Shown: piece after piece, positions 5,491 to 17,583 of the stretch
Layout: the number at the start of each line of letters is the position of its first letter
Numbering within the stretch: the stretch's first letter is position 1
Program-made: the position numbers and the translations under genes
The notes under the pieces: model-generated
Database searches by the model: none
Seen by the model: the letters and a program-made list of their open reading frames with translations, nothing else
Told to the model about the DNA's origin: nothing
Assembly: GCA_937875035.1 (NCBI GenBank)
Contig: CALNCF010000328.1
Coordinates: 1 to 37,901 of the forward strand
Origin: an uncultured Sphingobacteriaceae bacterium
Lineage (GTDB): Bacteria > Bacteroidota > Bacteroidia > Sphingobacteriales > Sphingobacteriaceae
Direction: 5' to 3'
DNA length: 37,901 bases

Positions 5491-5811
5491 AAGGAAGTCG
5501 ATTTAGTAAAAAGGGCGGTAAAAGAAACACCCTTCTCACAGAATTTTGAAATATCGAAAGAGGTTTCTACCTTGTATTCATTCGGCGATACCCTGCGCCT
5601 TACCCAACAGTATTAAATTTAATAGTTCGATATAGCTTCCGAGTTCTGGGGGTGAATAAATTCATGAGTGAGATTTCGTGAGATGGATTGGATATGGTTC
5701 GAGCCCGAGTAGGGCTACGACTATATGGACAAGGAAGTATCGGGAAGGTAGAAAAAAAGGGCTGAGAAGGGTGGGTTGGTAAAGAGTTATAAAATCTACA
5801 ATAGGAAAACG

Positions 5812-6813
5812 ATGTTAGTATTATCTGAAAATTTACTGCAATCTGACCCGAATACCATCGAGTTACATTATTGGTTTCATGACGAAACACATTTGATGGA
5901 CGCTTTAATTCAGAACAGATGTGAATACGAATTTTTAGGCATCCTAAAAGAAATAGCTTCAACCTTTAAGGTTGAAATAACAATTGAAACGGAACCTCTT
6001 GCAAACGGGGGATTGAAAAGACTTTTTAAAATTGCGAGTAAAGATGTAAACAAGAATACAATCATAGTCACACTAATAACATCACTTTTAGCCGCAATAA
6101 TCGTAACACCGATAGCAACCTCAATTAGTAAAACAACCGAAATTCTTATTCAAAAACTTTTTGAAGATTCAGAATTAAAGGAGTTAGAAAAAGAAAAATT
6201 AAAGCTTGAAATTGAAAAATTGAAGCAGGAAACGCGGAGCAATATTTTAAAATTGGATAGTAGTAATGTAGTCAAAAAGAAGAGGTCAAATTTCTATGAA
6301 TCACTCGACAATTATCCAAAAATTGAAAAAGTAACTTTTATTGCTTCCGGTGAGAATCAAGCTTCATTGCTGGAAGAACAAACTGTTTTCAGGGCTGAAT
6401 TTAAGCAATTTATTCTTGTTACTGATGACCTAGAACCAAGTGAGGAGGATAATGCGATTATTGAGATAATTTCACCAGTACTGAAGAAAGGAGCGTATAA
6501 ATGGATGGGGATATATAATGGTGAAAATGTTTCTTTTAGTATGAAATCGAAGGAGTTTAAGAACTTAATTCAGACCGGCCAAGTACAATTCAAAAATGGA
6601 ACTTCAATTAACTGCCTGTTAACAATCAAGAAAAAAATTGACAATGAAGGCATTGAAAAAATAATCTCAATCGAAGTACCTAGAGTAAATCACTATTTTG
6701 AAAATGACAAACCAGTAGAAACATCGGAAGGGAAGAAGCATCGGCGTAAGAAAGAATACGAAAGATCACAAACAGAACTCTTTAGTAGTAATCAAGATAG
6801 TACAGAACTTTAA
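5812..6813 (+). CDS. Hypothetical membrane-anchored protein (N-domain, one TM helix, K/E coiled coil, beta-rich C-domain)
   Basis: The ORF track starts at TTG 5776 and the first ATG is at 5812 (MLVLSENLL). The hydrophobic segment TIIVTLITSLLAAIIVTPIATSI maps to about 6058-6126. The heptad-like EDSELKELEKEKLKLEIEKLKQE maps to about 6157-6243. I recognise no catalytic motif. Confidence 0.7.
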   Translation: MLVLSENLLQSDPNTIELHYWFHDETHLMDALIQNRCEYEFLGILKEIASTFKVEITIETEPLANGGLKRLFKIASKDVNKNTIIVTLITSLLAAIIVTPIATSISKTTEILIQKLFEDSELKELEKEKLKLEIEKLKQETRSNILKLDSSNVVKKKRSNFYESLDNYPKIEKVTFIASGENQASLLEEQTVFRAEFKQFILVTDDLEPSEEDNAIIEIISPVLKKGAYKWMGIYNGENVSFSMKSKEFKNLIQTGQVQFKNGTSINCLLTIKKKIDNEGIEKIISIEVPRVNHYFENDKPVETSEGKKHRRKKEYERSQTELFSSNQDSTEL

Positions 6814-6834
6814 AATAATTTTAAAAAAATAATT

Positions 6835-7413
6835 ATGGGATTAATGGTTCATAGCCTGGACGGTATACCGGAAGAACACCACAGGGATTATTTCATCTAT
6901 TTGCTTGATTACGGTTGGAGTGAACCATTAAGTGATGCCCTAAGAAACAATTTCGGGAAAATGGCAACTCTTGCTTCGGAAAGGAAAAACGCAGTTGTTA
7001 TAATGCGAACAGATGCTGGTGTACATTTTAGCGATGAAGTATTATCGTGGCACAATTTCAATGGGGAGGAAGTAGAAAAAGAACAACTATTACCCGCAAT
7101 TCTAGTGACTAATAGGCATCCTGCCGAATTTCGTAAGCGAGCGTTAAGAGAAGAGTGCGAGGCTGAGATTAATTTAAAAATGATTCTTTTTCCTCTTAAG
7201 AAATATTGTCAAAGCACAACTGATGTTGTAGCTCTTATACAAAAGATATTTACCAGTATTAAACTTGAGAGGGATTTGGATGATTTTGGAATTGTCAGAG
7301 AAAGGAAGAAAGGAATAAAAGGTGCAATAGCCAGTTCGATTTTATTAGAACCTAATTTTGGTGGATTAGGTTTTAGCTTTAATAAGTTAATTGAATATTT
7401 CAAAGAAGAATAA
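6835..7413 (+). CDS. Hypothetical protein (192 aa), second gene of the island operon
   Basis: The ATG lies 22 nt after the upstream stop. There is no TM segment, P-loop or nuclease motif that I recognise. Codon usage matches the neighbouring AT-rich genes. Confidence 0.7.
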   Translation: MGLMVHSLDGIPEEHHRDYFIYLLDYGWSEPLSDALRNNFGKMATLASERKNAVVIMRTDAGVHFSDEVLSWHNFNGEEVEKEQLLPAILVTNRHPAEFRKRALREECEAEINLKMILFPLKKYCQSTTDVVALIQKIFTSIKLERDLDDFGIVRERKKGIKGAIASSILLEPNFGGLGFSFNKLIEYFKEE

Positions 7414-8196
7414 ATGGAACAAAATGCTATAAATAATGAATTGAATTCTGAAGAATATAAACGCGAATGGCGAAGACTTATAGAAATGCGAAAATCTATT
7501 ATAGCATGTCTGGCATTTTGCTATATGAATTCAGCTAGGGATGGAAGCAGTGGTGGTCGAAATTTTTTCCTGCGTATGATCGATGATATCATTCAATCAA
7601 TCATATCAATAGAAATAAATGCTAATAACGGAATAGTAAATACTTGTAGAAGGGAGGCTCGTTATTTAGTAGAGTTGTCAATTAAGAGTTATTTTATTGT
7701 AACAAATAATACTAAAATAACATTTGAACAGCAAATAGATGAATATGAAAAACTATTAGATTCATCAAATATAAATCCTATTAACACTTTAAGTTTTCAT
7801 TATTTAACCGGTCATGAAGAAGAATTTAAAATGTATGTTAAGAGGTTATATGGTTACTTATGTATGTATTCTCACTCTAGCTCCTATCAAATTCGTGAAC
7901 GTTTGACCAGAGCCGAAGCGGGTAGAACTATCGGCTTTGAAGGAGTGCAAGAACTTCACAAATTGAATAATGATATTGAGAAAGTATTTTCTACTGTTAT
8001 TGTAATGATCTTTCATTCTGTTGCGCCTTATGTCACTGCTGATTTTTTGGTTGAACCTAACGGAGAAACGATAGATTGGTACTTCAATAAGTCAAAGTTT
8101 ATATGTTTGATAGATCAACAATTTGATTATAAATCAGAGCGACAATCAATATTGGCTGATTTGAATATCAGGAGAACAAATCGCGTAACATTTTAA
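7414..8196 (+). CDS. Hypothetical, apparently all-alpha protein (260 aa), third gene of the island operon
   Basis: The ATG directly abuts the upstream TAA (7411-7413), which suggests translational coupling. The segments CRREARYLVELSIKSYF and LYGYLCMYSHSSS loosely recall the AbiV/DUF5677-type helical families, but this is unverified. Confidence 0.7.
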   Translation: MEQNAINNELNSEEYKREWRRLIEMRKSIIACLAFCYMNSARDGSSGGRNFFLRMIDDIIQSIISIEINANNGIVNTCRREARYLVELSIKSYFIVTNNTKITFEQQIDEYEKLLDSSNINPINTLSFHYLTGHEEEFKMYVKRLYGYLCMYSHSSSYQIRERLTRAEAGRTIGFEGVQELHKLNNDIEKVFSTVIVMIFHSVAPYVTADFLVEPNGETIDWYFNKSKFICLIDQQFDYKSERQSILADLNIRRTNRVTF

Positions 8197-8213
8197 TGTT
8201 TCGTAGATATTCT

Positions 8214-8474
8214 TTATACTTTCGTATTACCAGAGTAATTCCATACCCCACTCTGCCCAATAATAATATGATCCAAAACTTTTACACCTATAAACTCTCC
8301 GAGTAATTCTAATCGCTTTGCAAGTATAATATCATTTGCACTTGGCAGAAGATTGCCGGAAGGGTGATTGTGAGCCATGATAACACTTGATGCGTTTACT
8401 TTCAATGCAACCTGGAAGATCAATAAAGGATCAACTGAGGTAGAGCTGAGACCACCGGAACTAAAACTTGACCG
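8214..8474 (-). pseudogene. 5'-truncated RadC-like JAB/MPN domain gene fragment
   Basis: It translates to SSGGLSSTSVDPLLIFQVALKVNASSVIMAHNHPSGNLLPSANDIILAKRLELLGEF...SGVWNYSG. This is paralogous to residues about 73-151 of the intact copy at 9107..9562. An in-frame stop lies at 8475-8477 and no ATG precedes the domain. Confidence 0.7.
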
Positions 8475-8795
8475 TTATGTCATGTAAACAATTAGCAGTA
8501 ATAGTAGTTCAATGGGAACTTGAATTCCATGTAAGAAGATTCAATTGCTTATATCTATAAAATAGATTTACCTTTTAAAGGGTCAATTTATAATTGAACG
8601 GAAAACAAAATGTGCCAAATTGACAATTACAGCCAAATGGCACATAAGTTGATGTTGCCATATACCAAATAATTAATGGATTAAAACTGTTTGGGAATGG
8701 GTTGTCACTGTTGACGCTACGAATATATAAAGATAACTCTACTATTAAAGAATCTGTGGGTTCGTACAATACGAATAAAACAAAACCAAATTGAT

Positions 8796-9077
8796 ATGGC
8801 AGAGAACATACAAATTTCCTGTATCAACAAAGATGATCGTTACAGTGCTTATGAGCGAATAAAATATGTAGGAGGAGTTCATAATGGTTTAAGATGGAAG
8901 CTTCCATTAAATGACGCAATACGCGGAATTGAAAATGGAACTTATACATTTTATACTAATGTAAATGGTCATGTAAGGCGGGTTGTTATAGCAACGAGAA
9001 GTGGTGTTAAATACCTAAAAACCGAAGCTGATAATGACACGCCTGACAATTTGCTTAGCTTGGCTGAGTGTCCTTAA
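8796..9077 (+). CDS. DUF3892 domain protein
   Basis: 93 aa. ...ERIKYVGG...WKLPLNDAIRGIENGTYTFYT...GVKYLKTEADNDTPDNLLSLAEC matches my recollection of the DUF3892 pattern. Confidence 0.75.
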   Translation: MAENIQISCINKDDRYSAYERIKYVGGVHNGLRWKLPLNDAIRGIENGTYTFYTNVNGHVRRVVIATRSGVKYLKTEADNDTPDNLLSLAECP

Positions 9078-9106
9078 AATAAGTGCCCATTTTGGGCACT
9101 TATTTT
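9076..9106. terminator. Bidirectional stem-loop between convergent genes
   Basis: A 14-bp stem, aaaataagtgccca (9076-9089) / tgggcacttatttt (9093-9106), has A/T runs on both sides. It sits between the DUF3892 gene (+) and radC-like gene (-). Confidence 0.8.
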
Positions 9107-9365
9107 TTATTTTCCTGAATAGTTCCATATTCCACTTTGCCCAATTATAATATGATCCAGTACCTTCACATATAAAAACTCTCCCAATAGTTCTAATCTT
9201 TTTGCAAGCACCATATCATTCGCACTTGGAAGTAGATTGCCGGATGGATGATTGTGAGCCATAATAATGCTTGAAGCATTGACCTTCAAAGCTACCTGAA
9301 ATATGAGCAAAGGGTCTACTGCAGTGGAACTGATGCCGCCGGAACTGACTCCATAATATCCTAAT
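9107..9365 (-). repeat. Diverged direct repeat with 8214..8474 (the two radC-like copies)
   Basis: By-eye nucleotide alignment of the two segments shows extended colinear similarity with many substitutions. The encoded peptides differ at only a handful of positions. Confidence 0.7.
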
Positions 9366-9562
9366 ACTCTTCCTGCCCTATTCATATAAATTGCGATCAT
9401 TTCTTCGCGGTGATTTAAGCTACCAGGTTTCCAAATAGCTTTCAGGAGTTCGTGGACTTGATCCGGATTTGTAATTACCGGATGATCCTCAATCGGATCT
9501 TTGTAAATGTATGACAACTCAATTTCCGGAGGGCGAGAAAGTCTGAACTTCTTCTTTGGCAT
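9107..9562 (-). CDS. RadC-like JAB/MPN domain protein (DUF2466 family)
   Basis: 151 aa with the JAMM-type motif HNHPSGNLLPSANDMVLAKRL preceded by SSGGISSTAVDPLLIF. Confidence 0.85.
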   Translation of the reverse strand: MPKKKFRLSRPPEIELSYIYKDPIEDHPVITNPDQVHELLKAIWKPGSLNHREEMIAIYMNRAGRVLGYYGVSSGGISSTAVDPLLIFQVALKVNASSIIMAHNHPSGNLLPSANDMVLAKRLELLGEFLYVKVLDHIIIGQSGIWNYSGK

Positions 9563-9694
9563 CAGCGATAAGTCTTATGGCCGTCGAAAGTTACCCAGAG
9601 TTATACAGTATTGATAACGCCCCCGCAGGAACAACATCTTGACACTTTCATATAATTACCTGATATTGTATTGATTAACCAATAGAAGGCCTGT

Positions 9695-12600
9695 ATGAAA
9701 ACCCACATACTTACGCTGATCGCGATCATACTCCTCCCCCTGTATGCTTTCGCGCAACACATTGAAACCGTTAACGGAACCTCTGCGCTTCAGCCCATCT
9801 CCACCCTTGGCACGGTATCCATCCCGGAAAAGGGCGGGCGGTACCTGCTCTTTTCGTTTGAGAAGATCCCCGGGGAAAACGAAATAGCGATACTCCGTGA
9901 AAAGGGTATGGAGCTCACCGGCTTCGTTCCCCCCTCCGCCTATATCGCCCGGCTGGAACGCTGGGATGTAGGCCTTCGACAGGAGGTGCAACGCATCTTC
10001 AACGCCTATGGTGAGATCCCCGTACAGCTCAGGCTCGCGCCTGATCTTTTCAACGCTTTATCCGGAGAAGGCATTCATTTCCCGCAGGAGTTTATCCTCT
10101 CCGTGTATGAAGCCGGGGAGCTGGAAACGCTTCGCGGTTTACTCACTGCTCAGAACATCCCTCACTATACCACTTCCCGCACAGGTACTCACAGCCTGAT
10201 CGCCGGGCTGGGCGACCTGCCGCAGCTACAATGGGTATTGGCCCTGCAAAGCCTGGAATCGGTTGCCAGGTATTACCCGGAGATGACTGAGCAGTCTACC
10301 AATAACAGCATGCAGGCCAACCAGATCCATTACCTCAATTACAACCGGGTCGGACCAACCGGGAAGAATACTTATTTCGCCAATATAGAAGCCTTCGGAG
10401 GGAACAACCTGTTCAGGCTGAACGCTACAGGCAGGAATCACCCGGTATACGGCATGCATTATGCCGACGGACTGAATGCGGGTGCGGGCTCGCACGGCAC
10501 CACCGTAGGGCTGTATGCGGCCGCGGCTAATAATTACAATGAGTATGAAGACCGGGGCATGGCAGAAGGCGCCACCTATGTGTTCATGCCCTCCTATTCC
10601 GACATCGAAAAGCTGTATACTGATTACAACCTCCGGCCGCTTACCCTGAATGTATCCGCAGGACAGGGTGGCCCGACCGTTGCCTATAACGCGCAGGCCC
10701 GGGAGTTCGACCGGATCACCCGTTCGCTCGGAAGCTTTATGCTCTGCATGGCCGCAGGCAACAGCGGGAACACCACCAATACCACGCTCTCCTATGGACC
10801 GGGATGGGCCACTATCGTCGCAGAAGAACGGACCAGCAAAAATAACTTCACCGTACACGCCGGGGCTAATCCCGGCGAACATTACGAATGGGCCAGCAAG
10901 GGCCCGACACGCGACGGGCGGCTGAAACCCGACATCAGCCCCGAAGGCTTTGCAGGAACTTCCAACGCCTCACCCAATATGGCAGGCATGGTGAATGTGC
11001 TGTTCGAATCTTACCAGGACTCTTACCATACCGCTCCGCGCAGCGACGTGGTGAAAGCCGTGGTGCTGAACACCGCGATCGATGCAGACAAGAAGGGCAT
11101 CGATTTCAAGACCGGCTTCGGAACCCTCAACCCGATCCGGGCGCACCGCGCCATCCAGCAGCAGCATATTTTTACCGGCAGCATGCCCCAGGGATCATCC
11201 GGCAGCGTACAATATACCCTCAATATCCCGGCAGGTACCCGGCTGGCCAAGATCCTGCTATACTGGCATGACTACCCGGGAACGGTAGGTGCTGCCAAAG
11301 CGCTGGTGAACGACCTCGATATCAGGGTAAGCACACCATCCGGGCAAACATTCCTGCCCTGGGTACTCGACCCTAAACCGGGCAGGCATTACGATCTCCC
11401 GGTACGCAAGACCGACAACCTGAACAACGTGGAGCAGGTAACGATCGACGATCCGCAGGCCGGCATCTACACCATCACCATAAGCGGAAGCTATGTGCCC
11501 TTCGGTCCGCAGCCATTCGTAGTGACCTACGACCTGCTCCCGTACCATATCGAGATCACCTCGCCGGTAGCAGGCTTCCGTACCGCACGCGGCAAGCAGA
11601 TCCTCTTTACCTGGAATGCCGCCCTTGCCACAGGCAACCAGGTCGAACTGATCCTGCAAAAGCAAACCGGGCAGAGCTCCGTAATCGCCACTCTTCCCGA
11701 TACACAGCTCTACTACAAATACACCATACCTGCCGACTTCCCGAACAGCTCAACGGCACGCCTCATTGTCAGGCAGAAGAACACCTTTTATGCCGATACC
11801 AGCGAATATTTTCATGTGATGGAAAGTCCTTCGGGATTGTCGTTCAGATCGATCTGCAGCGACAGGATCCGGCTGCAATGGAACAACCTGAATATCCCGG
11901 GCACCCAATACATCCTATACCGGCTCGGCGAAAAATATATGGAAGAGGTAGGGCGCGTGGATTACCCTGCCACCTCCCTCTTGCTGGAAGCCTCCGCCTT
12001 ACCCGGAGCCAGCCAGGGCTTTAAGCGGGAAGAATGGTTCGCCATTGCGGCGAAGCACCCGAACGGAGCCCAGAGCCTCCGCTCCCTCCCGGTCTGCAAT
12101 TCCCAGGTACCCCCGCTGAGCCTGCCCATGCCTTTTCAGAAAGAATACACCCTGTGCTTCGGCGATTCGGCGGTGGTCCGGGCGCACGAGCTGGAACGCG
12201 ACAGCATCCGCTGGTACCGCAACGGCAGTATGATCGCGGGCGCTTCCTCCTCCGCCATGACCTTCCGTGCCAGCGATCCGGGGGATTATTTCTACCGGGA
12301 ATTCCAGCAGGGCTGCGTGTATACCAGCGACACATTCCGCATCAATGCCTTTCTTCATATCAGCGACACCTCGGTGTACGGCGACCGTTCCTGGAATGTC
12401 TATGTGCTGAAGAACGACGACCCCGGCCAGTACTATGGCCGCGTAGTGATCCCGGCCCTCTCTATAAACTCTACCAAATATTACCGCGACCTCGACGGGC
12501 AGATCAACGATGCGCCGGGCTATATCGGGTGTCGCCCCGGCCAGTTCTACACACTCCTGTATAAACGCAAAGGCTTCGCTAAAGGCTATTACAAAATGAC

Positions 12601-13735
12601 GCTCGACTATATCCAGCTCCAGGCAAGCATCTTTATCAACGGGCAGTTAGTGTACACGAGCCCGCAGAATGTGATCAACCAGGGTGTGGTATGGCAGGGC
12701 TACCTGGATGAAGAAAGCACCGTACGGATCGTGCAGCCGGGCCGCGTGCATACGATCATGAGGCTGGACATCCAGGCATCCGGGTATGCCACTCCCGGGC
12801 ATACCGCACAGGCTCCCGCCTTATGGCTCAAAGGGGACAAGGCCGTCAGCGACAGCTCGGGACTCGTAAGATCATGGCGGGATGTCAACCCCTATGGCGT
12901 CAGGAACAGCGCTACATCCGGAGCCGGGATCCAAGTCAGCCCCGCAGGGATCAACAACAATCCCAGCCTTATTTTCGGGAACCAGGGAGGAATTCATGGA
13001 AAGATATCTTCCGGAACGGAGAATGAAGGATACACCTACGCCGTGTTCAACATGCAGGAAGTATCCCGCAGCAGAGCGCGGGTGCTTGGGTTTTCCCTCA
13101 ACCCCTACAGCGACGACCAGTACAACTTCAGCTATACGCCGTTTTGCAGGAAAGACAGCAGCGCGCAGATCGGCGTGTACCGGAATGCCTTCAGCCTGTT
13201 CCCGGCCATACCGCTCACCGGGCAATGGAACCTGCTGCAGACCGGCATGAAGCAGGGCGAATGCTTCATCTCTTCATCCGGCACCCCGATCGCACAGGGT
13301 ATCCCTACTTCCCCGGGTCTGCTCTACGATTCCTATAATATCGGCTCACGCTACGATTCGCTCCCGGGCGAAGGACGATTCAGCGGAGAGATCGCCGAGA
13401 TCATCCATTATACTTCACCGCTCAGCCCGGGCGAAAACCGCCGGGTACATACATACCTGGCCCTGAAATACGGCTTCAGCCTGCCCTATCCTTACCTGGG
13501 TGGCAGCGGCCGCGAAATCTATACGGCAGGCAGCTACAGCCGGCAGATCGCAGGCATCGCCCGCGAAGATGCGCAGGACCTGATGCAAAAGCAATCACGC
13601 AGCAACGAGACGATCCCCGATGTGTTTACGGGTAGCCTGGGCGCCATAGCTTCCTCGAACGCGCAGAACAGCGCACCGTTCGCCATAACGGAGCGCCTGC
13701 CCTGTATACCGAACCATGGGCCGATTCCTCTATAA
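9695..13735 (+). CDS. Secreted S8-family (subtilisin-like) peptidase, large multidomain; appears to lack its own C-terminus (see 13996..14808)
   Basis: Signal peptide MKTHILTLIAIILLPLYAFAQ. The His motif is GSHGTTVG (H at 10493-10495), the oxyanion-region motif is AAGNSG, and the Ser motif is GTSNASPNMAG (S at 10961-10963). The protein is 1346 aa and ends abruptly at 13735. Confidence 0.85.
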   Translation: MKTHILTLIAIILLPLYAFAQHIETVNGTSALQPISTLGTVSIPEKGGRYLLFSFEKIPGENEIAILREKGMELTGFVPPSAYIARLERWDVGLRQEVQRIFNAYGEIPVQLRLAPDLFNALSGEGIHFPQEFILSVYEAGELETLRGLLTAQNIPHYTTSRTGTHSLIAGLGDLPQLQWVLALQSLESVARYYPEMTEQSTNNSMQANQIHYLNYNRVGPTGKNTYFANIEAFGGNNLFRLNATGRNHPVYGMHYADGLNAGAGSHGTTVGLYAAAANNYNEYEDRGMAEGATYVFMPSYSDIEKLYTDYNLRPLTLNVSAGQGGPTVAYNAQAREFDRITRSLGSFMLCMAAGNSGNTTNTTLSYGPGWATIVAEERTSKNNFTVHAGANPGEHYEWASKGPTRDGRLKPDISPEGFAGTSNASPNMAGMVNVLFESYQDSYHTAPRSDVVKAVVLNTAIDADKKGIDFKTGFGTLNPIRAHRAIQQQHIFTGSMPQGSSGSVQYTLNIPAGTRLAKILLYWHDYPGTVGAAKALVNDLDIRVSTPSGQTFLPWVLDPKPGRHYDLPVRKTDNLNNVEQVTIDDPQAGIYTITISGSYVPFGPQPFVVTYDLLPYHIEITSPVAGFRTARGKQILFTWNAALATGNQVELILQKQTGQSSVIATLPDTQLYYKYTIPADFPNSSTARLIVRQKNTFYADTSEYFHVMESPSGLSFRSICSDRIRLQWNNLNIPGTQYILYRLGEKYMEEVGRVDYPATSLLLEASALPGASQGFKREEWFAIAAKHPNGAQSLRSLPVCNSQVPPLSLPMPFQKEYTLCFGDSAVVRAHELERDSIRWYRNGSMIAGASSSAMTFRASDPGDYFYREFQQGCVYTSDTFRINAFLHISDTSVYGDRSWNVYVLKNDDPGQYYGRVVIPALSINSTKYYRDLDGQINDAPGYIGCRPGQFYTLLYKRKGFAKGYYKMTLDYIQLQASIFINGQLVYTSPQNVINQGVVWQGYLDEESTVRIVQPGRVHTIMRLDIQASGYATPGHTAQAPALWLKGDKAVSDSSGLVRSWRDVNPYGVRNSATSGAGIQVSPAGINNNPSLIFGNQGGIHGKISSGTENEGYTYAVFNMQEVSRSRARVLGFSLNPYSDDQYNFSYTPFCRKDSSAQIGVYRNAFSLFPAIPLTGQWNLLQTGMKQGECFISSSGTPIAQGIPTSPGLLYDSYNIGSRYDSLPGEGRFSGEIAEIIHYTSPLSPGENRRVHTYLALKYGFSLPYPYLGGSGREIYTAGSYSRQIAGIAREDAQDLMQKQSRSNETIPDVFTGSLGAIASSNAQNSAPFAITERLPCIPNHGPIPL

Positions 13736-13995
13736 AGCTGCAACGCACCTGGAAGCTGCAGCATACCGGTAAGGCCGGGAGCTTCCGCTTTAATTTTGAT
13801 GATTCCCTGAACCCTCCTTCGCTTTCCTGCGAAGCATACAAGCTCCTGCTTGGCCCTGACCTTTCGCAGCCTGCCAACGCCCGCCTGTATGAGCTGTATA
13901 GCTATACCGCTGCCGATGGGAAGACCTATGCTTACGCGGATGTAAGCTTCCTGTCGGATACTGTTCTTTATTTTTCGCTGATCCGGGAACAGCGT

Positions 13996-14808
13996 GTGCT
14001 CACCAGCCAGGCATTGCCAGCGCAAAGTGCTGCCTCGGCTACCTGCATCGTACAGGACGCCCTAGTACTCATCGACAGCTCCGGGCAATACCAGGTCGCG
14101 CAGGTCATCTTCCCTCCGGCTTCGGCAGCGCAAACCAACCTGCTTATGTTGCGGACAGACCATGCGGAAAATTCACTGGCAGCCTGCAACGATACCACAC
14201 GCCTGAGCGTGCTGAATCGCTTATTACATGTTGACTTTAGTCCCGACAGCGGGACGATCGGGGTACGCCTGTTCCTGCTGCCGGAAGACTCGCTGAACGC
14301 CCTGCACAACCCCACGCTTACCGGCTGCGAACCATTCCGTTATCCGTTGCACTGGTTCCTGGAAGAAGATGAGGATAGCCTGGCCGCAAAGATCAGGAAC
14401 GCGCAGGCGCTCTCCTGGATCCCTGACCAGGAGCTGCAATTAACCAATGATTCTTCCGGGCTTTATATTGATATCAGGAATCTGCCGATTCGCAGCTTCA
14501 TTCTCGGCGCCGCACTGTACGATACCACGATGAAGCCGCCTCCGGTGATCCTTTCCACCGCGCTTGATCCGGCTGAGGATATCTCCGTTTATCCCAACCC
14601 GGTACGGAACGAGCTCAGCGTGGAAGGCATGCAGCCCGGCAGCGTCATCAGCCTGTACAATGTATACGGACAATGCCTGTACCGGTCAACAGCCACCGAA
14701 GCGATCACCAGGATCGCCATGCCCTATGCCCCGGGTATGTATATGATCGCGGTTGAAGGAACGGACGGTTCCGTATATAAGCAAAAGGTGATCAAGGCCG
14801 CGGAGTAG
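13996..14808 (+). CDS. T9SS C-terminal sorting domain protein; probably the displaced C-terminal part of the S8 peptidase gene
   Basis: The C-terminus ISVYPNPVRNELSVEG...LYNVYGQCLY...APGMYMIAVEGTDGSVYKQKVIK is a Por/T9SS CTD. There is no signal peptide and only a GTG start. The same frame is open upstream back to 13636. Confidence 0.8.
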   Translation: MLTSQALPAQSAASATCIVQDALVLIDSSGQYQVAQVIFPPASAAQTNLLMLRTDHAENSLAACNDTTRLSVLNRLLHVDFSPDSGTIGVRLFLLPEDSLNALHNPTLTGCEPFRYPLHWFLEEDEDSLAAKIRNAQALSWIPDQELQLTNDSSGLYIDIRNLPIRSFILGAALYDTTMKPPPVILSTALDPAEDISVYPNPVRNELSVEGMQPGSVISLYNVYGQCLYRSTATEAITRIAMPYAPGMYMIAVEGTDGSVYKQKVIKAAE

Positions 14809-14896: not shown

Positions 14897-15244
14897 TTAA
14901 ACCTTCTTTACAAATTCAGATTTCAGGGCCATGGAACCGAAGCCATCGATCTTACAGGAGATATTATGATCCCCATCGACCAGGCGGATGTTCTTTACTT
15001 TGGTTCCCGACTTTAATGGCTTGGGAGCACCCTTCACCGAGAGGTCCTTGATCACCATCACCGTATCACCATTCTGTAATTCATTTCCATGCGCGTCCAT
15101 CACACGTCCCTCGGCATTCCCCGCTTCCTCCGCAGACTCTGTTCCGGGTATCCACTCATGGAAACATTGGGAACATACCATCATCTCCTGGTTAGGATAA
15201 GTCAGATCGGAATGGCATAAAGGGCAGTGTACAGTAGCGCTCAT
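14897..15244 (-). CDS. yjdM: Zinc-ribbon protein YjdM/PhnA
   Basis: An N-terminal CPLC...CSQC zinc ribbon, then [15 protein letters not shown]...[39 protein letters not shown] chose the ATG at 15244 ([10 protein letters not shown]) rather than the longer ORF-track start. Confidence 0.85.
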
Positions 15245-15433
15245 TTTATTTGGGTATAAGAGATTTGAAGGTCCTGAGGACAGGGATTTGTTCCCTGACA
15301 ACCGAATAGGATACTCAGGGGTAAAGGTAGGAAATTATTGGGATAAAACTATTGAAGATGAGTTCTGTAAGATATTGAAACTATTAATAGGCTCCTTAAA
15401 TATTCACACAAAGAATAAAAAGCATTTACCAAT

Positions 15434-15811
15434 CTATTTTTCAACCCAATACGCAAATGATTGAGGTGGTGATAAATTAAAATCATCTTTTAAACATTTT
15501 GGTCTTTTGTACTTTCTCGTTTTTTTAATCTTTATTGCAAAACCTTCATTTTTGTTAGCGAAATACTCGTAGTAGAATTCTTTACTAATACCCGAATATT
15601 CTTGTGTTAAGTCCCAAAGTGTAGATAAATCATAATTTAGAACTTCATCTATTTCAAATTCTCCTATTACTTGTTGAACAGGAGATGATGCATAAACAAT
15701 TATTGATTTTATATTTTCATTCTTAAAAATTGACTTTCTAAATTCAAATTTTTTTGTACCATCAAATATCTTAAATGCGAACTCTGGTTTGATTGATAAT
15801 ATTACCTTCAT
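15434..15811 (-). CDS. Stand-alone ASCH domain protein (COG4933-like)
   Basis: MKVILSIKPEFAFKIFDGTKKFEFRKSIFK...IIVYASSPVQQVIGEFEI...GFAIKIKKTRKYKRP...PPQSFAYW matches the COG4933-type ASCH pattern as I recall it. The ATG at 15811 lies 4 nt after the upstream stop (15816-15818). Confidence 0.8.
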   Translation of the reverse strand: MKVILSIKPEFAFKIFDGTKKFEFRKSIFKNENIKSIIVYASSPVQQVIGEFEIDEVLNYDLSTLWDLTQEYSGISKEFYYEYFANKNEGFAIKIKKTRKYKRPKCLKDDFNLSPPQSFAYWVEK

Positions 15812-15815
15812 CTTG

Positions 15816-17339
15816 TTATTTCTTATTATATGCAAACTTAATTAAATCCTCGAACTGGTCGTTAGTCAATTTAGCAAAACCTTTCGGTAAGCTCATTGGA
15901 TCTGCGAATATTTTTAACTCGATCAAGTCATTAAGAGTTGGCTTAGGCGTTGGTAACGAGTGAGCATATAGAAAGTTAATTACAAAAGGTCTATATTTTG
16001 GAAACTTATCCCACCATTTTGTTTTTAAATTCTCTTTAGAGATCATCGTCCGTCTATTACAAGCATTAAAAAAATCGTCGAAATCCTTAAAGTCATTTTT
16101 AACACTCTCTACAATACAAATTGTTGTAACTGTACTGGAATACTTTTTAGGACTTGTTTCACCAATTCTATATATCAAGATAACATCCCCAGATTTTAAG
16201 TGTCGATCAGATGAATGAGAAATATAAACTTTACTAATTCTGTTTCTGTGTGGTTCATTCTCTGTATACTTGTCTTTGTCTTCTTTTGTATTTATACTAT
16301 CTGGGAACAACTCGGTGTGATATTGAGGCTCTATCTTAATCAGATATTTATTAGTTTGTCTTGAAAAGAATGGAAAGGTAAGTTTAGGGTTTTCAATATT
16401 TACAGGATTTTTTTTATTAAAATCTCTCACATAAACTAACTCATCTCCATTTTGAGTTGTTTTAATCCCATGCCTTGTAAAGCCCCACTCTTCAAGCATC
16501 TCAATTAGTTGTTCTTGTTCAGGTCTTTTGTCGAAAATTGTAACATAAATTTCTTCAACTTTAAAAAGTAAAGCATTGTCAAATATCGTTTTCAGGAATC
16601 GTTCACCGATTTTGTAACCATTACCCGTTACTTTTAATGTTCCAATCTTCAATCTTTTTTTAGGTTTGAAAACGGGGGTTATTTCAGAATAGCTCTCTTC
16701 TCCAGCCTTTTCAATTTTTATGAAGAGGAATGCGGTTAGTTGATTATCATTATAACATACATAGCATGGCTGCTCGGATTTACGATTAAACCATGTATCA
16801 AATTCCTCATAATCACTTCTAAAACTGTCAAAAAAACTATCTTTCAAATTAACTTCGGCAAAATCAACTTTTTTGACAGCCAAAACCTTATGCGTAACCA
16901 AGTCTGGATTTTGTGCTATAGCTTTTTCTAAAAAACTTTGGATACGAAATACCTTATCGCCAATTCCTAAAATATTTGCCTTTGCATGAATTTTTTTGTC
17001 CTCTGAAATTAGGATATCTACCCTATCTTCAAATACTTCATTTAATATTTGAGTATCATTAATATCATTCTGTAAGCGATCATATTGTTGACTTACTTGT
17101 TTGATTTTATCACCTAATGGGGCTTGATATTTTAATTGATTGTAACTCTCAATTTTTACATTCATTGTGCTTAAAGAATCTTGATCCTTATATCTTTTTA
17201 ACTCTTCTATTGTCAAGGGATGAATATATTTATCATATTTGAGTTTATCCAGCCAATTGAAAAGTTGTCCGATGCCAAGATTGTGGGCCTTATTGGCTTC
17301 CCGATGTATGATGATATTTGTATCAAGTAAGACTTTCAT
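15816..17339 (-). CDS. Three-domain fusion protein: N-terminal PIN nuclease, central GNAT-like acetyltransferase, C-terminal PUA-like (EVE/ASCH-type) domain
   Basis: PIN: VLLDTNIII (D6), IEELK, NDINDTQIL, ILISEDKK. GNAT-like (about aa 155-305): AFLFIKIEK...LKIGTLKVTGNGYKIGERFLKTIFDNAL...IYVTIF...LIEMLEEWGF. PUA-like (about aa 325-505): KYLIKIEPQY...LKSGDVILIYR...TTICIVESV...LPKGFAKLTNDQFEDLIK. Confidence 0.7.
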   Translation of the reverse strand: MKVLLDTNIIIHREANKAHNLGIGQLFNWLDKLKYDKYIHPLTIEELKRYKDQDSLSTMNVKIESYNQLKYQAPLGDKIKQVSQQYDRLQNDINDTQILNEVFEDRVDILISEDKKIHAKANILGIGDKVFRIQSFLEKAIAQNPDLVTHKVLAVKKVDFAEVNLKDSFFDSFRSDYEEFDTWFNRKSEQPCYVCYNDNQLTAFLFIKIEKAGEESYSEITPVFKPKKRLKIGTLKVTGNGYKIGERFLKTIFDNALLFKVEEIYVTIFDKRPEQEQLIEMLEEWGFTRHGIKTTQNGDELVYVRDFNKKNPVNIENPKLTFPFFSRQTNKYLIKIEPQYHTELFPDSINTKEDKDKYTENEPHRNRISKVYISHSSDRHLKSGDVILIYRIGETSPKKYSSTVTTICIVESVKNDFKDFDDFFNACNRRTMISKENLKTKWWDKFPKYRPFVINFLYAHSLPTPKPTLNDLIELKIFADPMSLPKGFAKLTNDQFEDLIKFAYNKK

Positions 17340-17542
17340 TGATTGTTATTCATTTAGTATAACTCATAATTAAAGCAATGGCCCATTGAATACATCCAGC
17401 CAAAAATTGGACAATACAAAACTTTAGATAACTAATAGTTACAAGCAACAGATATACTGATAAAAGACAATGAAATCAAATTTAATTTCAAAAATTGATC
17501 ACCAACCAGTTTTTCACGACTTTTTACTAAATTAACATCTGT

Positions 17543-17583
17543 AAAAGCAAAAGCCCTCCTCATTCGAGAAGGGCTTTTGCTTT
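17543..17583 (-). terminator. Rho-independent terminator downstream of lon
   Basis: A long stem, gcaaaagccct (17547-17557) / agggcttttgc (17570-17580), is extendable by flanking A/T pairs. A T run follows on the minus strand. Confidence 0.8.

Follow-up and report, generated by a model that had tools for sequence, protein, structure and literature searches.

The PDC-M11 family and its copy in a Sphingobacteriaceae contig

Operons in which a gene for a GNAT-type protein is followed by one for a small ASCH protein have been described several times. Matelska et al. (2017; PMC5499597) reported PIN_17, a fusion of PIN and acetyltransferase domains encoded upstream of a helix-turn-helix (HTH)-ASCH protein (COG4933), in which the PIN domain is dispensable and which is joined by extra ATPase genes in Bacteroidetes. 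Bell et al. (2020; PMC7641849) found that (PIN)-GNAT-EVE operons "almost all" carry an ASCH gene and often one for an AAA_17 protein, noted links to restriction-modification (RM) systems of type I and to prophages, as well as fusions of ASCH to HsdS in Methanohalophilus and to HTH in alpha-proteobacteria, and predicted a toxin-antitoxin or defense role, in which the part played by the ASCH protein was "unclear". As cited in both papers, Iyer et al. (2013) had proposed nucleic-acid acetylation for this architecture. Here, we analyze such a pair in an uncultured Sphingobacteriaceae bacterium (assembly GCA_937875035.1, contig CALNCF010000328.1); positions 1 to 37,901 of this contig, the whole stretch of DNA analyzed, are referred to as the window. 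The pair consists of gene A, encoding a protein with PIN, GNAT-like, and PUA-like domains, and gene B, encoding a stand-alone ASCH protein (Table 1).

Both proteins match the same candidate system of PADLOC over nearly their entire length. A matches PDC-M11A (PDLC04422; E-value 9.8e-207, residues 1-505 of 507 on profile positions 1-494 of 501), and B matches PDC-M11B (PDLC04425; E-value 6.9e-52, residues 1-123 of 125). These models are also matched by two coliphage proteins (GenBank PV340567.1) labeled "GevT toxin" and "GevA antitoxin", which are 36% and 47% identical to A and B of the window, respectively. PDC-M11, PIN_17, (PIN)-GNAT-EVE with ASCH, and "GevTA" thus name the same two proteins in the same order, on the same strand, and with the same tight junction as in the window. 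Throughout the family, the PIN domain is dispensable and the AAA_17 gene optional, and relatives occur on prophages, plasmids, and in RM loci. The window copy shows no essential difference from this family: it is a minimal two-gene form that has kept the PIN domain, lacks an AAA_17 gene and an HTH domain, and sits among ordinary genes, unlike the RM-embedded relatives. It is one more copy of PDC-M11, an ordinary member of an already known but mechanistically unsolved family whose linkage was published in 2013, 2017, and 2020, and its novelty is low for that reason. The family itself is very widespread, with at least 4257 homologs of A and about 3500 of B.

A and B form an obligate, co-inherited pair

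Species-representative genomes were scanned with a query built from 17 sequences, which yielded 570 relatives of A, and the best 80 of these were examined. They are 53-88% identical to A and stem mostly from Bacteroidota, with single loci from metagenome-assembled genomes labeled Limnohabitans, Pontiellaceae, Ignavibacteria, and Proteobacteria. A homolog of B lay downstream on the same strand in all 77 loci that could be assessed. The contigs of the other three stop 8-827 nucleotides (nt) past A, and two of these contain the start of an inserted gene known from other loci. Viral contigs from IMG/VR gave a similar picture. When these were collected with A, B was located downstream in 75 of 80, two had B adjacent but convergent, and three ended too soon; when they were collected with B, 75 of 80 had an A-type gene directly upstream, and five were orphans. 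A without B was found in none of the 77 assessable genome loci and 77 assessable viral loci. A and B are therefore an obligate pair, co-inherited across phyla, prophages, and plasmids. The original prediction, made from the letters of the window alone, had proposed these two genes as functional partners, and the conserved linkage on which such a proposal depends is firmly established by adjacency in 77 of 77 genome and 77 of 77 viral loci.

The junction between the two genes is equally consistent. In the window, A ends with a TAA at 15818-15816, and the ATG of B follows at 15811-15809, with the B stop codon at 15436-15434. A mechanical list of open reading frames (ORFs) offered a longer version of B with a TTG start at 15835; this was rejected, since the homologs all open at the MKV... 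encoded from the ATG at 15811. Judged by the ORF layout and by these starts, the coordinates, the 4-nt spacing, and the start of B had been correctly read in the original prediction. Among the same 77 genome loci, 29 had an ATGA overlap (-4 nt from the A stop to the B start), 35 a distance of +1 to +9 nt, and two a distance of -23 nt; the remaining loci had junctions of 96-182 nt (four loci) or about 950-985 nt (seven loci). The tight junction is not due to chance, and its lengths among relatives fit translational coupling. A scan for sigma-70 promoters gave no excess over shuffled sequences, with a model that is ill-suited to Bacteroidota. Public sequencing runs had 5-7% of words in common with the region.

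Two departures from this layout were observed (loci are cited by our own numbers). In nine of the 80 genome loci, a gene for a 308-amino acid (aa) protein with a hydrophobic carboxyl-terminal tail stood between A and B (positions 7515-8441 of L033; also L047, L048, L053-L056, L070, and L075). This protein had no match in Pfam, PADLOC, or PHROG, and its gene may be a third component or an "embedded" gene. The five orphan B-type genes, with no A nearby, were all found in viral contigs (positions 4001-4375 of L102; also L103, L104, L107, and L118). Four of these contigs come from one metagenome and are perhaps not independent. The orphan viral genes could be phage-borne antitoxin mimics or anti-defense genes.

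The GNAT-like domain, the PUA-like domain, and B are the constant parts

When 1.8 billion representative proteins were searched, 1759 relatives of A with several architectures came up, of which divergent ones were sampled. Many relatives lack the PIN domain or have it replaced. PIN-less versions of about 360 aa are paired with B, and one such version lies in the interval between hsdS and hsdR of a type I RM operon, with a B that is fused to an AAA_17-type P-loop domain. In a 621-aa relative, an extra N-terminal ASCH domain precedes the PIN domain and B follows downstream; relatives of 596 aa and 462 aa have other N-termini and are likewise accompanied by B. In a 632-aa protein, A and B are joined in one natural fusion chain. 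Of the 80 close loci, 30 have an AAA_17-like gene directly upstream of A; the window has none there. Because the pairing persists in every divergent architecture sampled, the invariable unit consists of the GNAT-like domain, the PUA-like domain, and the ASCH protein B, to which the PIN domain, the kinase-like or AAA_17 protein, and extra ASCH domains are accessory. In the type I RM operon with the PIN-less A and the B-AAA_17 fusion (positions 1219-11084 of L081), genes for an HTH/M78 peptidase protein and for a PIN-like DUF3368 protein are nested as well, a case of multi-layer embedding.

Domain composition of A

Full-length sequence and full-length profile searches of A against the PDB returned no match, and when Pfam was run on its three segments, only PIN models were matched, with none for the GNAT-like or PUA-like segment. 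A search by fold was therefore needed for the other domains. An AlphaFold model of A was built on an alignment of 72 sequences (mean predicted local distance difference test score 89; predicted template modeling score 0.79) and compared with known structures by Foldseek. Together with the hidden Markov model (HMM) matches to PIN families, this supports the PIN-GNAT-PUA architecture that had been read from the translation.

The HMM matches of A to PIN_3, PIN_4, and PIN_12 are weak, with E-values from 2e-4 to 4e-3 and scores that equal the gathering cut-off or fall short of it; the isolated domain scored 22.5 bits with PIN_3 (cut-off 27) and 21.4 bits with PIN_4 (cut-off 21.9). Residues D6, E46, D95, and D114 are invariant in 74 members of the subfamily and, by their position in the sequence, would correspond to the catalytic acidic residues. 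Because of this invariance within the close subfamily, the PIN domain is probably an active nuclease. An N-terminal PIN domain with four conserved acidic residues is also typical of VapBC. In VapBC, however, the PIN protein is the toxin, whereas the A-B pair has no VapB-type antitoxin and its PIN domain is an optional addition to a GNAT-PUA core.

For the middle domain, Foldseek returned the GNATs 8osp, 5icw (Naa60), 1tiq (PaiA), and about 90 others, with E-values of about 2e-5 to 1e-3 and template modeling (TM) scores of about 0.6. A family profile of this domain gave weak matches to PaiA and Naa50 in the PDB (E-values 0.03-0.05), and Acetyltransf_1 of Pfam was matched by 10 of 23 relatives of the domain (best E-value 3.7e-6). 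Invariant positions make up a larger share of this domain than of any other part of A; Y177, W183, E210, K231, Y265, T267, and E300 are among them. Two of these, K231 and T267, align with Tyr73 and His112, the catalytic residues of Naa50. Since the domain is the most invariant part of A and these two positions are fixed, it likely contains a functional pocket of some kind.

The carboxyl-terminal domain, of the type named EVE by Bell et al. (PMC7641849), gave a Foldseek match to the ASCH protein ZmASCH (5y6c; E-value 4e-5, TM score 0.74). Its direct alignment with B by hhalign was colinear but weak (E-value 0.013, probability 3%), which is consistent with the fold match. The domain does not contain the G-x-K-x-x-E-x-R motif of B and is the most variable of A, with a mean pairwise identity of 0.58. 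It has the appearance of a binding module.

B is an ASCH protein of the Glu type

B passes the gathering cut-off of the Pfam ASCH model (PF04266; 24.9 bits, cut-off 21.2, E-value 3.5e-5), in agreement with its earlier assignment. Its closest solved structure is ZmASCH of Zymomonas (5GUS/5GUQ; E-value 4e-11), which aligns over the whole length. Residues K20, E23, and R25 of the octapeptide G-x-K-x-x-E-x-R are invariant and G18 is nearly so among 76 close and 15 distant homologs, down to 29% identity. The motif is also retained in the fusion of B to a kinase-like domain, in the A-B fusion, and in an orphan phage copy of B.

The original prediction had pointed to Escherichia coli YqfB, an N4-acetylcytidine (ac4C) amidohydrolase (PMC6972931), as a characterized ASCH protein. 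Glu23 of B occupies the octapeptide position of the Thr nucleophile of YqfB (G-x-K-x-x-T-x-R), and B is for this reason not YqfB-like. B shares the ASCH beta-barrel and the Lys/Arg octapeptide with YqfB, TthASCH, EOLA1, TRIP4-ASCH, and ZmASCH, and belongs with TthASCH, EOLA1, and ZmASCH to the Glu type (GKER). These enzymes are stand-alone or eukaryotic and, unlike B, have no GNAT-PUA partner gene. ZmASCH was first described as a ribonuclease (RNase) for single-stranded RNA (ssRNA); it is reported to be inactive on free ac4C and active on ac4C of tRNA in vitro. According to a 2026 preprint, all 19 of 19 ASCH proteins tested, Glu-type proteins and ZmASCH among them, strip ac4C from tRNA in vitro, and the Lys and Glu of the motif are essential for this de-acetylation in TthASCH, EOLA1, and TRIP4. 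Of the three functional residues of ZmASCH, B retains Tyr47 (its Y40) and Ser128 (its S118) and has Gln in place of Lys53.

JGI names the homologs of B "predicted transcriptional regulator", in line with the COG4933 label and with the description of PIN_17 (PMC5499597). A function of B as a transcription factor was nonetheless rejected, the window protein being an ASCH domain alone, without HTH. The ASCH subfamily of B also forms the C-terminal half of the "50S ribosomal protein L22/unknown domain fusion protein" (NCBIfam PRK12279; E-value 1.2e-15), and the same name is carried by one cluster (P0475) of stand-alone 122-aa homologs of B. This fusion and its naming hint at a connection to the ribosome or rRNA.

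Evidence for toxin-antitoxin behavior

Three lines of indirect evidence suggest that the pair behaves like a toxin and its antitoxin. The occurrence of the two genes is asymmetric: A was never found alone in assessable loci, and B was an orphan in 5 of 80 viral loci. The coliphage homologs are labeled as toxin and antitoxin in GenBank. Finally, a 2026 transposon-insertion sequencing (Tn-seq) study of Dickeya dadantii 3937 reported an "ASCH domain-containing protein", Dda3937_01763, as one of four essential genes of prophage 1. The ASCH gene of this prophage (CP002038.1, positions 916651-917031), to which we assigned the tag by position and description, adjoins the integrase at the left end of the prophage; its product matches PDC-M11B and is 52% identical to B of the window. 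Upstream of and overlapping it lies a gene for a 365-aa PDC-M11A protein (E-value 1.3e-136) that was not listed as essential (locus L253 spans CP002038.1 positions 912651-921031). Antitoxins usually show up in this way, as a small essential gene beside a large gene that can be dispensed with, and antitoxin behavior would be the simpler reading of the Dickeya ASCH gene. From the asymmetry, the label, and the Tn-seq result, we consider it on balance probable that A and B form a toxin-antitoxin-like module in which B is the antagonist of A. The acetylation pair with toxin-antitoxin-like logic that had been predicted earlier thus stands in part: the conserved pairing and the toxin-antitoxin logic are upheld by these results, but acetylation by the GNAT-like domain is not, given its degenerate acetyl-CoA motif (see below).

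The pair was also considered as a type II system of the GNAT kind (TacAT, AtaRT, ItaRT, KacAT), and this assignment was rejected. Like A, the toxins TacT, AtaT, ItaT, and KacT have a GNAT fold and a small neighboring gene, and tRNA or translation is the probable target class in both cases. Each of these toxins, however, consists of a single domain, is about 170 aa long, carries a canonical acetyl-CoA motif, and acetylates aminoacyl-tRNA, whereas A comprises 507 aa in three domains. Their antitoxins are toxin-binding ribbon-helix-helix or HTH DNA-binding proteins that are usually encoded upstream, whereas B is an ASCH protein without HTH, encoded downstream.

How B might antagonize A

Several features of B bear on its mode of action. 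Its mean pairwise identity (0.69) exceeds that of A (0.63) and of the PUA-like domain of A (0.58), and the divergence of A and B is moderately correlated (r = 0.48 overall, 0.25 with the carboxyl-terminal domain of A). At one Reichenbachiella locus (L005, B at 7529-7900), A is 86% identical to that of the window and B only 45%, and the similarity of the DNA ends about 75 nt into B, at position 15735 of the window, suggesting that recombination has replaced the B allele. Taken together, the conservation of B, its loose co-divergence with A, and this swap would better suit an enzyme that works on a shared substrate than a binding partner co-adapted to A. Within the toxin-antitoxin reading, enzymatic reversal by B is the single most likely mode, and we put it forward tentatively.

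Under this reading, A would be a growth-inhibiting effector that its PUA-like domain directs to RNA (tRNA or some other modified RNA being the most plausible target), and that would act via its GNAT-like pocket plus, in the version of the window, its PIN RNase. B would restrain the effect of A in uninfected cells, and would do so catalytically: an amidohydrolase-type site formed by Lys20, Glu23, and Arg25 would reverse or pre-empt the nucleic-acid modification made by A, instead of B forming a tight complex with A. If B were lost or overwhelmed, for instance when a phage infects the cell or the element disappears, A would be set free.

In its most specific form, B would be an enzymatic (type IV-like) antitoxin that continuously erases an N-acyl mark set by A, be it ac4C, N-acetyl-aminoacyl-tRNA, or a mark on DNA. 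The logic would be that of DarT/DarG, also a mobile two-gene module, in which a transferase marks nucleic acid and a neighboring hydrolase erases the mark: the GNAT-like domain would acetylate N4 of cytidine or another amine in a tRNA, RNA, or DNA selected by the PUA-like domain, and the ASCH amidohydrolase would remove it. The chemistry of DarT/DarG is ADP-ribosylation, whereas the acetylation proposed here is hypothetical, and the PADLOC scan showed no homology of A or B to DarT/DarG, matching PDC-M11 models only. The GNAT fold of the middle domain speaks for such a writer, as does the alignment of its invariant K231 and T267 with the catalytic residues of Naa50. On the side of the eraser, the Lys/Glu/Arg motif of B is invariant, and alleles of B appear interchangeable between loci. 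Furthermore, ASCH proteins act as erasers of ac4C, YqfB (PMC6972931) among them, and acetylation is what Iyer et al. predicted, as cited in PMC5499597 and PMC7641849. Set against this, no acetylated product is known, B is of the Glu type and not of the Thr type of YqfB, and the natural A-B fusion would run a futile cycle unless regulated. In sum, the eraser half of this chemistry is plausible and the writer half doubtful, and we regard the complete scheme as possible but rather doubtful. If it were true, PDC-M11 or "GevTA" would be the first toxin-antitoxin or anti-phage system based on writing and erasing nucleic-acid acetylation, the orphan ASCH genes of phages would be anti-defense erasers, and nucleic-acid acetylation would become part of the chemical repertoire of bacterial immunity and of toxin-antitoxin systems. 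Should it fail, the pair would remain a clean model of how a PUA-like reader controls a PIN/GNAT effector. In a family this widespread, the de-acetylation of tRNA by Glu-type ASCH proteins makes the role of B addressable by point mutants.

A number of points weigh against a toxin-antitoxin-like module with a catalytic B. The GNAT-like domain of the window matches no Pfam GNAT model, and its motif A (R/Q-x-x-G-x-G/A), which forms the acetyl-CoA pyrophosphate loop, is degenerate: N240-G-Y-K243-I-G245 of A aligns with R-G-I-G-I-G of Naa50, so that the last Gly alone survives. A published analysis likewise predicts the GNAT domain to be inactive, with motif A missing (PMC5499597). In vivo, ac4C is not lowered by ZmASCH. 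ASCH domains commonly carry the K/E/R motif, which could be used for binding instead of catalysis, and the A-B fusion and the tight coupling of the genes would fit a physical complex equally well. The authors of the Dickeya study read the essential ASCH protein as an endoribonuclease that blocks virion production. PADLOC lists PDC-M11 among 145 candidate, explicitly untested, systems (Payne et al., 2024 preprint); a search of the literature for GevT and GevA returned no paper on a system of that name, which is a database label only, and the literature searched contained no experiment on the mechanism of the PDC-M11 or "GevTA" family. The genomic context adds little, as ordinary genes flank A and B both in the window and in one or more close relatives, and an hsdM gene was near only 1 of the 80 close loci in a tblastn search with one hsdM/hsdR/hsdS set, which is insensitive; because of this, no defense role is evident from the context here.

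The same observations can be read in other ways. B might be a non-catalytic reader or sensor of modified DNA or RNA, such as the hypermodified bases of phages, that regulates A or provides its target specificity, as was suggested for the ASCH partner in 2020 (PMC7641849). PUA, ASCH, EVE, and YTH domains are established readers of modified bases, and the fusions of ASCH to HsdS in Methanohalophilus and to HTH in alpha-proteobacteria (PMC7641849), the plasmid homologs annotated as GNAT and HTH proteins, and the relative inside a type I RM operon all fit such a role. B of the window, however, has no HTH and keeps its catalytic-type residues invariant, and it is more conserved than the PUA-like domain of A, where a sensor of variable phage marks should show the reverse. 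The Dickeya homolog, moreover, is essential without phage infection, which demands more than sensing, and we consider a purely sensory B unlikely. Similarly, B could be a classical type II-like antitoxin that binds A, for instance through its homologous carboxyl-terminal domain, without any enzymology. The ATGA overlaps and 1-9 nt spacers favor equimolar co-translation, a natural fusion exists, the carboxyl-terminal domain of A and B share one fold, and A was never found without B. The co-variation of A and B is nevertheless weak (r = 0.25-0.6), and one locus, that of Reichenbachiella, has a swapped B allele. Typical antitoxins are also labile, whereas B is a structured protein of high conservation, and the orphan B genes of unrelated phages would have to bind foreign A proteins, so a mere binding function has a low probability in our judgment.

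A further alternative assigns the effector function to B. As its closest solved relative, ZmASCH, cleaves ssRNA and shares Y40 and S118 with it, B might be an RNase steered by A, or the pair might be a housekeeping unit for RNA modification or repair; the fusion of this ASCH subfamily to ribosomal protein L22 in some genomes and the term "endoribonuclease" used by the Dickeya authors are in line with these ideas. Lys53 of ZmASCH is, however, Gln in B, and an effector toxin would not be the gene found essential by Tn-seq. A housekeeping role is at odds with the low-GC island in which the genes lie, their patchy spread across phyla, and their carriage by prophages, plasmids, and RM loci. Both versions seem very improbable to us. 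Between these alternatives, enzymatic antagonism of A by B remains the reading that we prefer.

The pair is carried by mobile elements

A and B are the sole genes of a 2.25-kb island with a GC content of 0.30, compared with 0.52 for the neighboring lon gene and 0.485 for the window. Homology at the DNA level to 40 other genomes is limited to positions 17340-15446, that is, exactly to the two ORFs. Relatives were found in 16 phage records. Eight of these are from Escherichia phages, which carry the genes between cI and kil, the position of rexAB in lambdoid phages; the remaining records include SopEPhi, Lj965, and psiM100. Of 5426 complete E. coli genomes, 275 (5%) contain the coliphage version with an identity of at least 99%. 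Relatives also occur on 33 plasmids, rhizobial ones included, where homologs are annotated as GNAT and HTH proteins. Judging from composition and distribution, the pair is a horizontally acquired module.

In the Methanothermobacter phage psiM100 (AF301375.1, positions 8233-9465), a PIN-containing relative of A is located inside a feature annotated as "inserted fragment IFa". The cassette has therefore entered archaeal viruses in the form of a discrete insert.

Layout of the locus and its surroundings

The features of the locus are listed in Table 1.

Table 1. Position and basis of the features of the A-B locus (numbering of the window)
Feature	Position	Strand	Remarks
Gene A, 507-aa PIN-GNAT-like-PUA-like protein (PDC-M11A/GevT-type with added PIN)	15816..17339	minus	Stop codon included
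Gene B, 125-aa stand-alone ASCH protein (PDC-M11B/GevA-type)	15434..15811	minus	Stop codon included
A-B spacer, 4 nt, caag	15812..15815	minus	From A stop to B start
PIN nuclease domain of A (predicted), aa 1-145	16905..17339	minus	HMM matches and invariant acidic residues
GNAT-like domain of A, aa 150-312	16404..16892	minus	Foldseek matches; invariable family core
C-terminal PUA-like (ASCH/EVE-like) domain of A, aa 325-507	15819..16367	minus	Foldseek match
ASCH octapeptide codons, G18-T-K20-K-F-E23-F-R25 (G-x-K-x-x-E-x-R, Glu type)	15737..15760	minus	
AT-rich non-coding leader upstream of A	17340..17553	minus	Candidate Bacteroidetes-type -7 box TAAATTTG at 17484-17477
Low-GC island, GC 0.30, with A and B as sole genes	15302..17553		Between phnA/yjdM (14897-15301) and lon terminator (17554-17572)

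A second island of low GC content (0.32-0.34) was observed at positions 5500-9600 of the window, about 6 kb from the first. It contains a gene for a 345-aa protein (5776-6813) that matches another PADLOC candidate, PDC-S42 (E-value 2.7e-110), together with a DUF3892 gene (8796-9077), a RadC-like JAB gene (9107-9562, minus strand), and two weakly matching ORFs. There are thus two distinct imported islands in the window, and each contains a "phage defense candidate". The region between them (9695-14808) is occupied by ORFs of 1346 aa and 270 aa. Judged by eye from the translation, the C-terminus of the 270-aa product resembles a sorting tail for type IX secretion, which would fit a Bacteroidota host.

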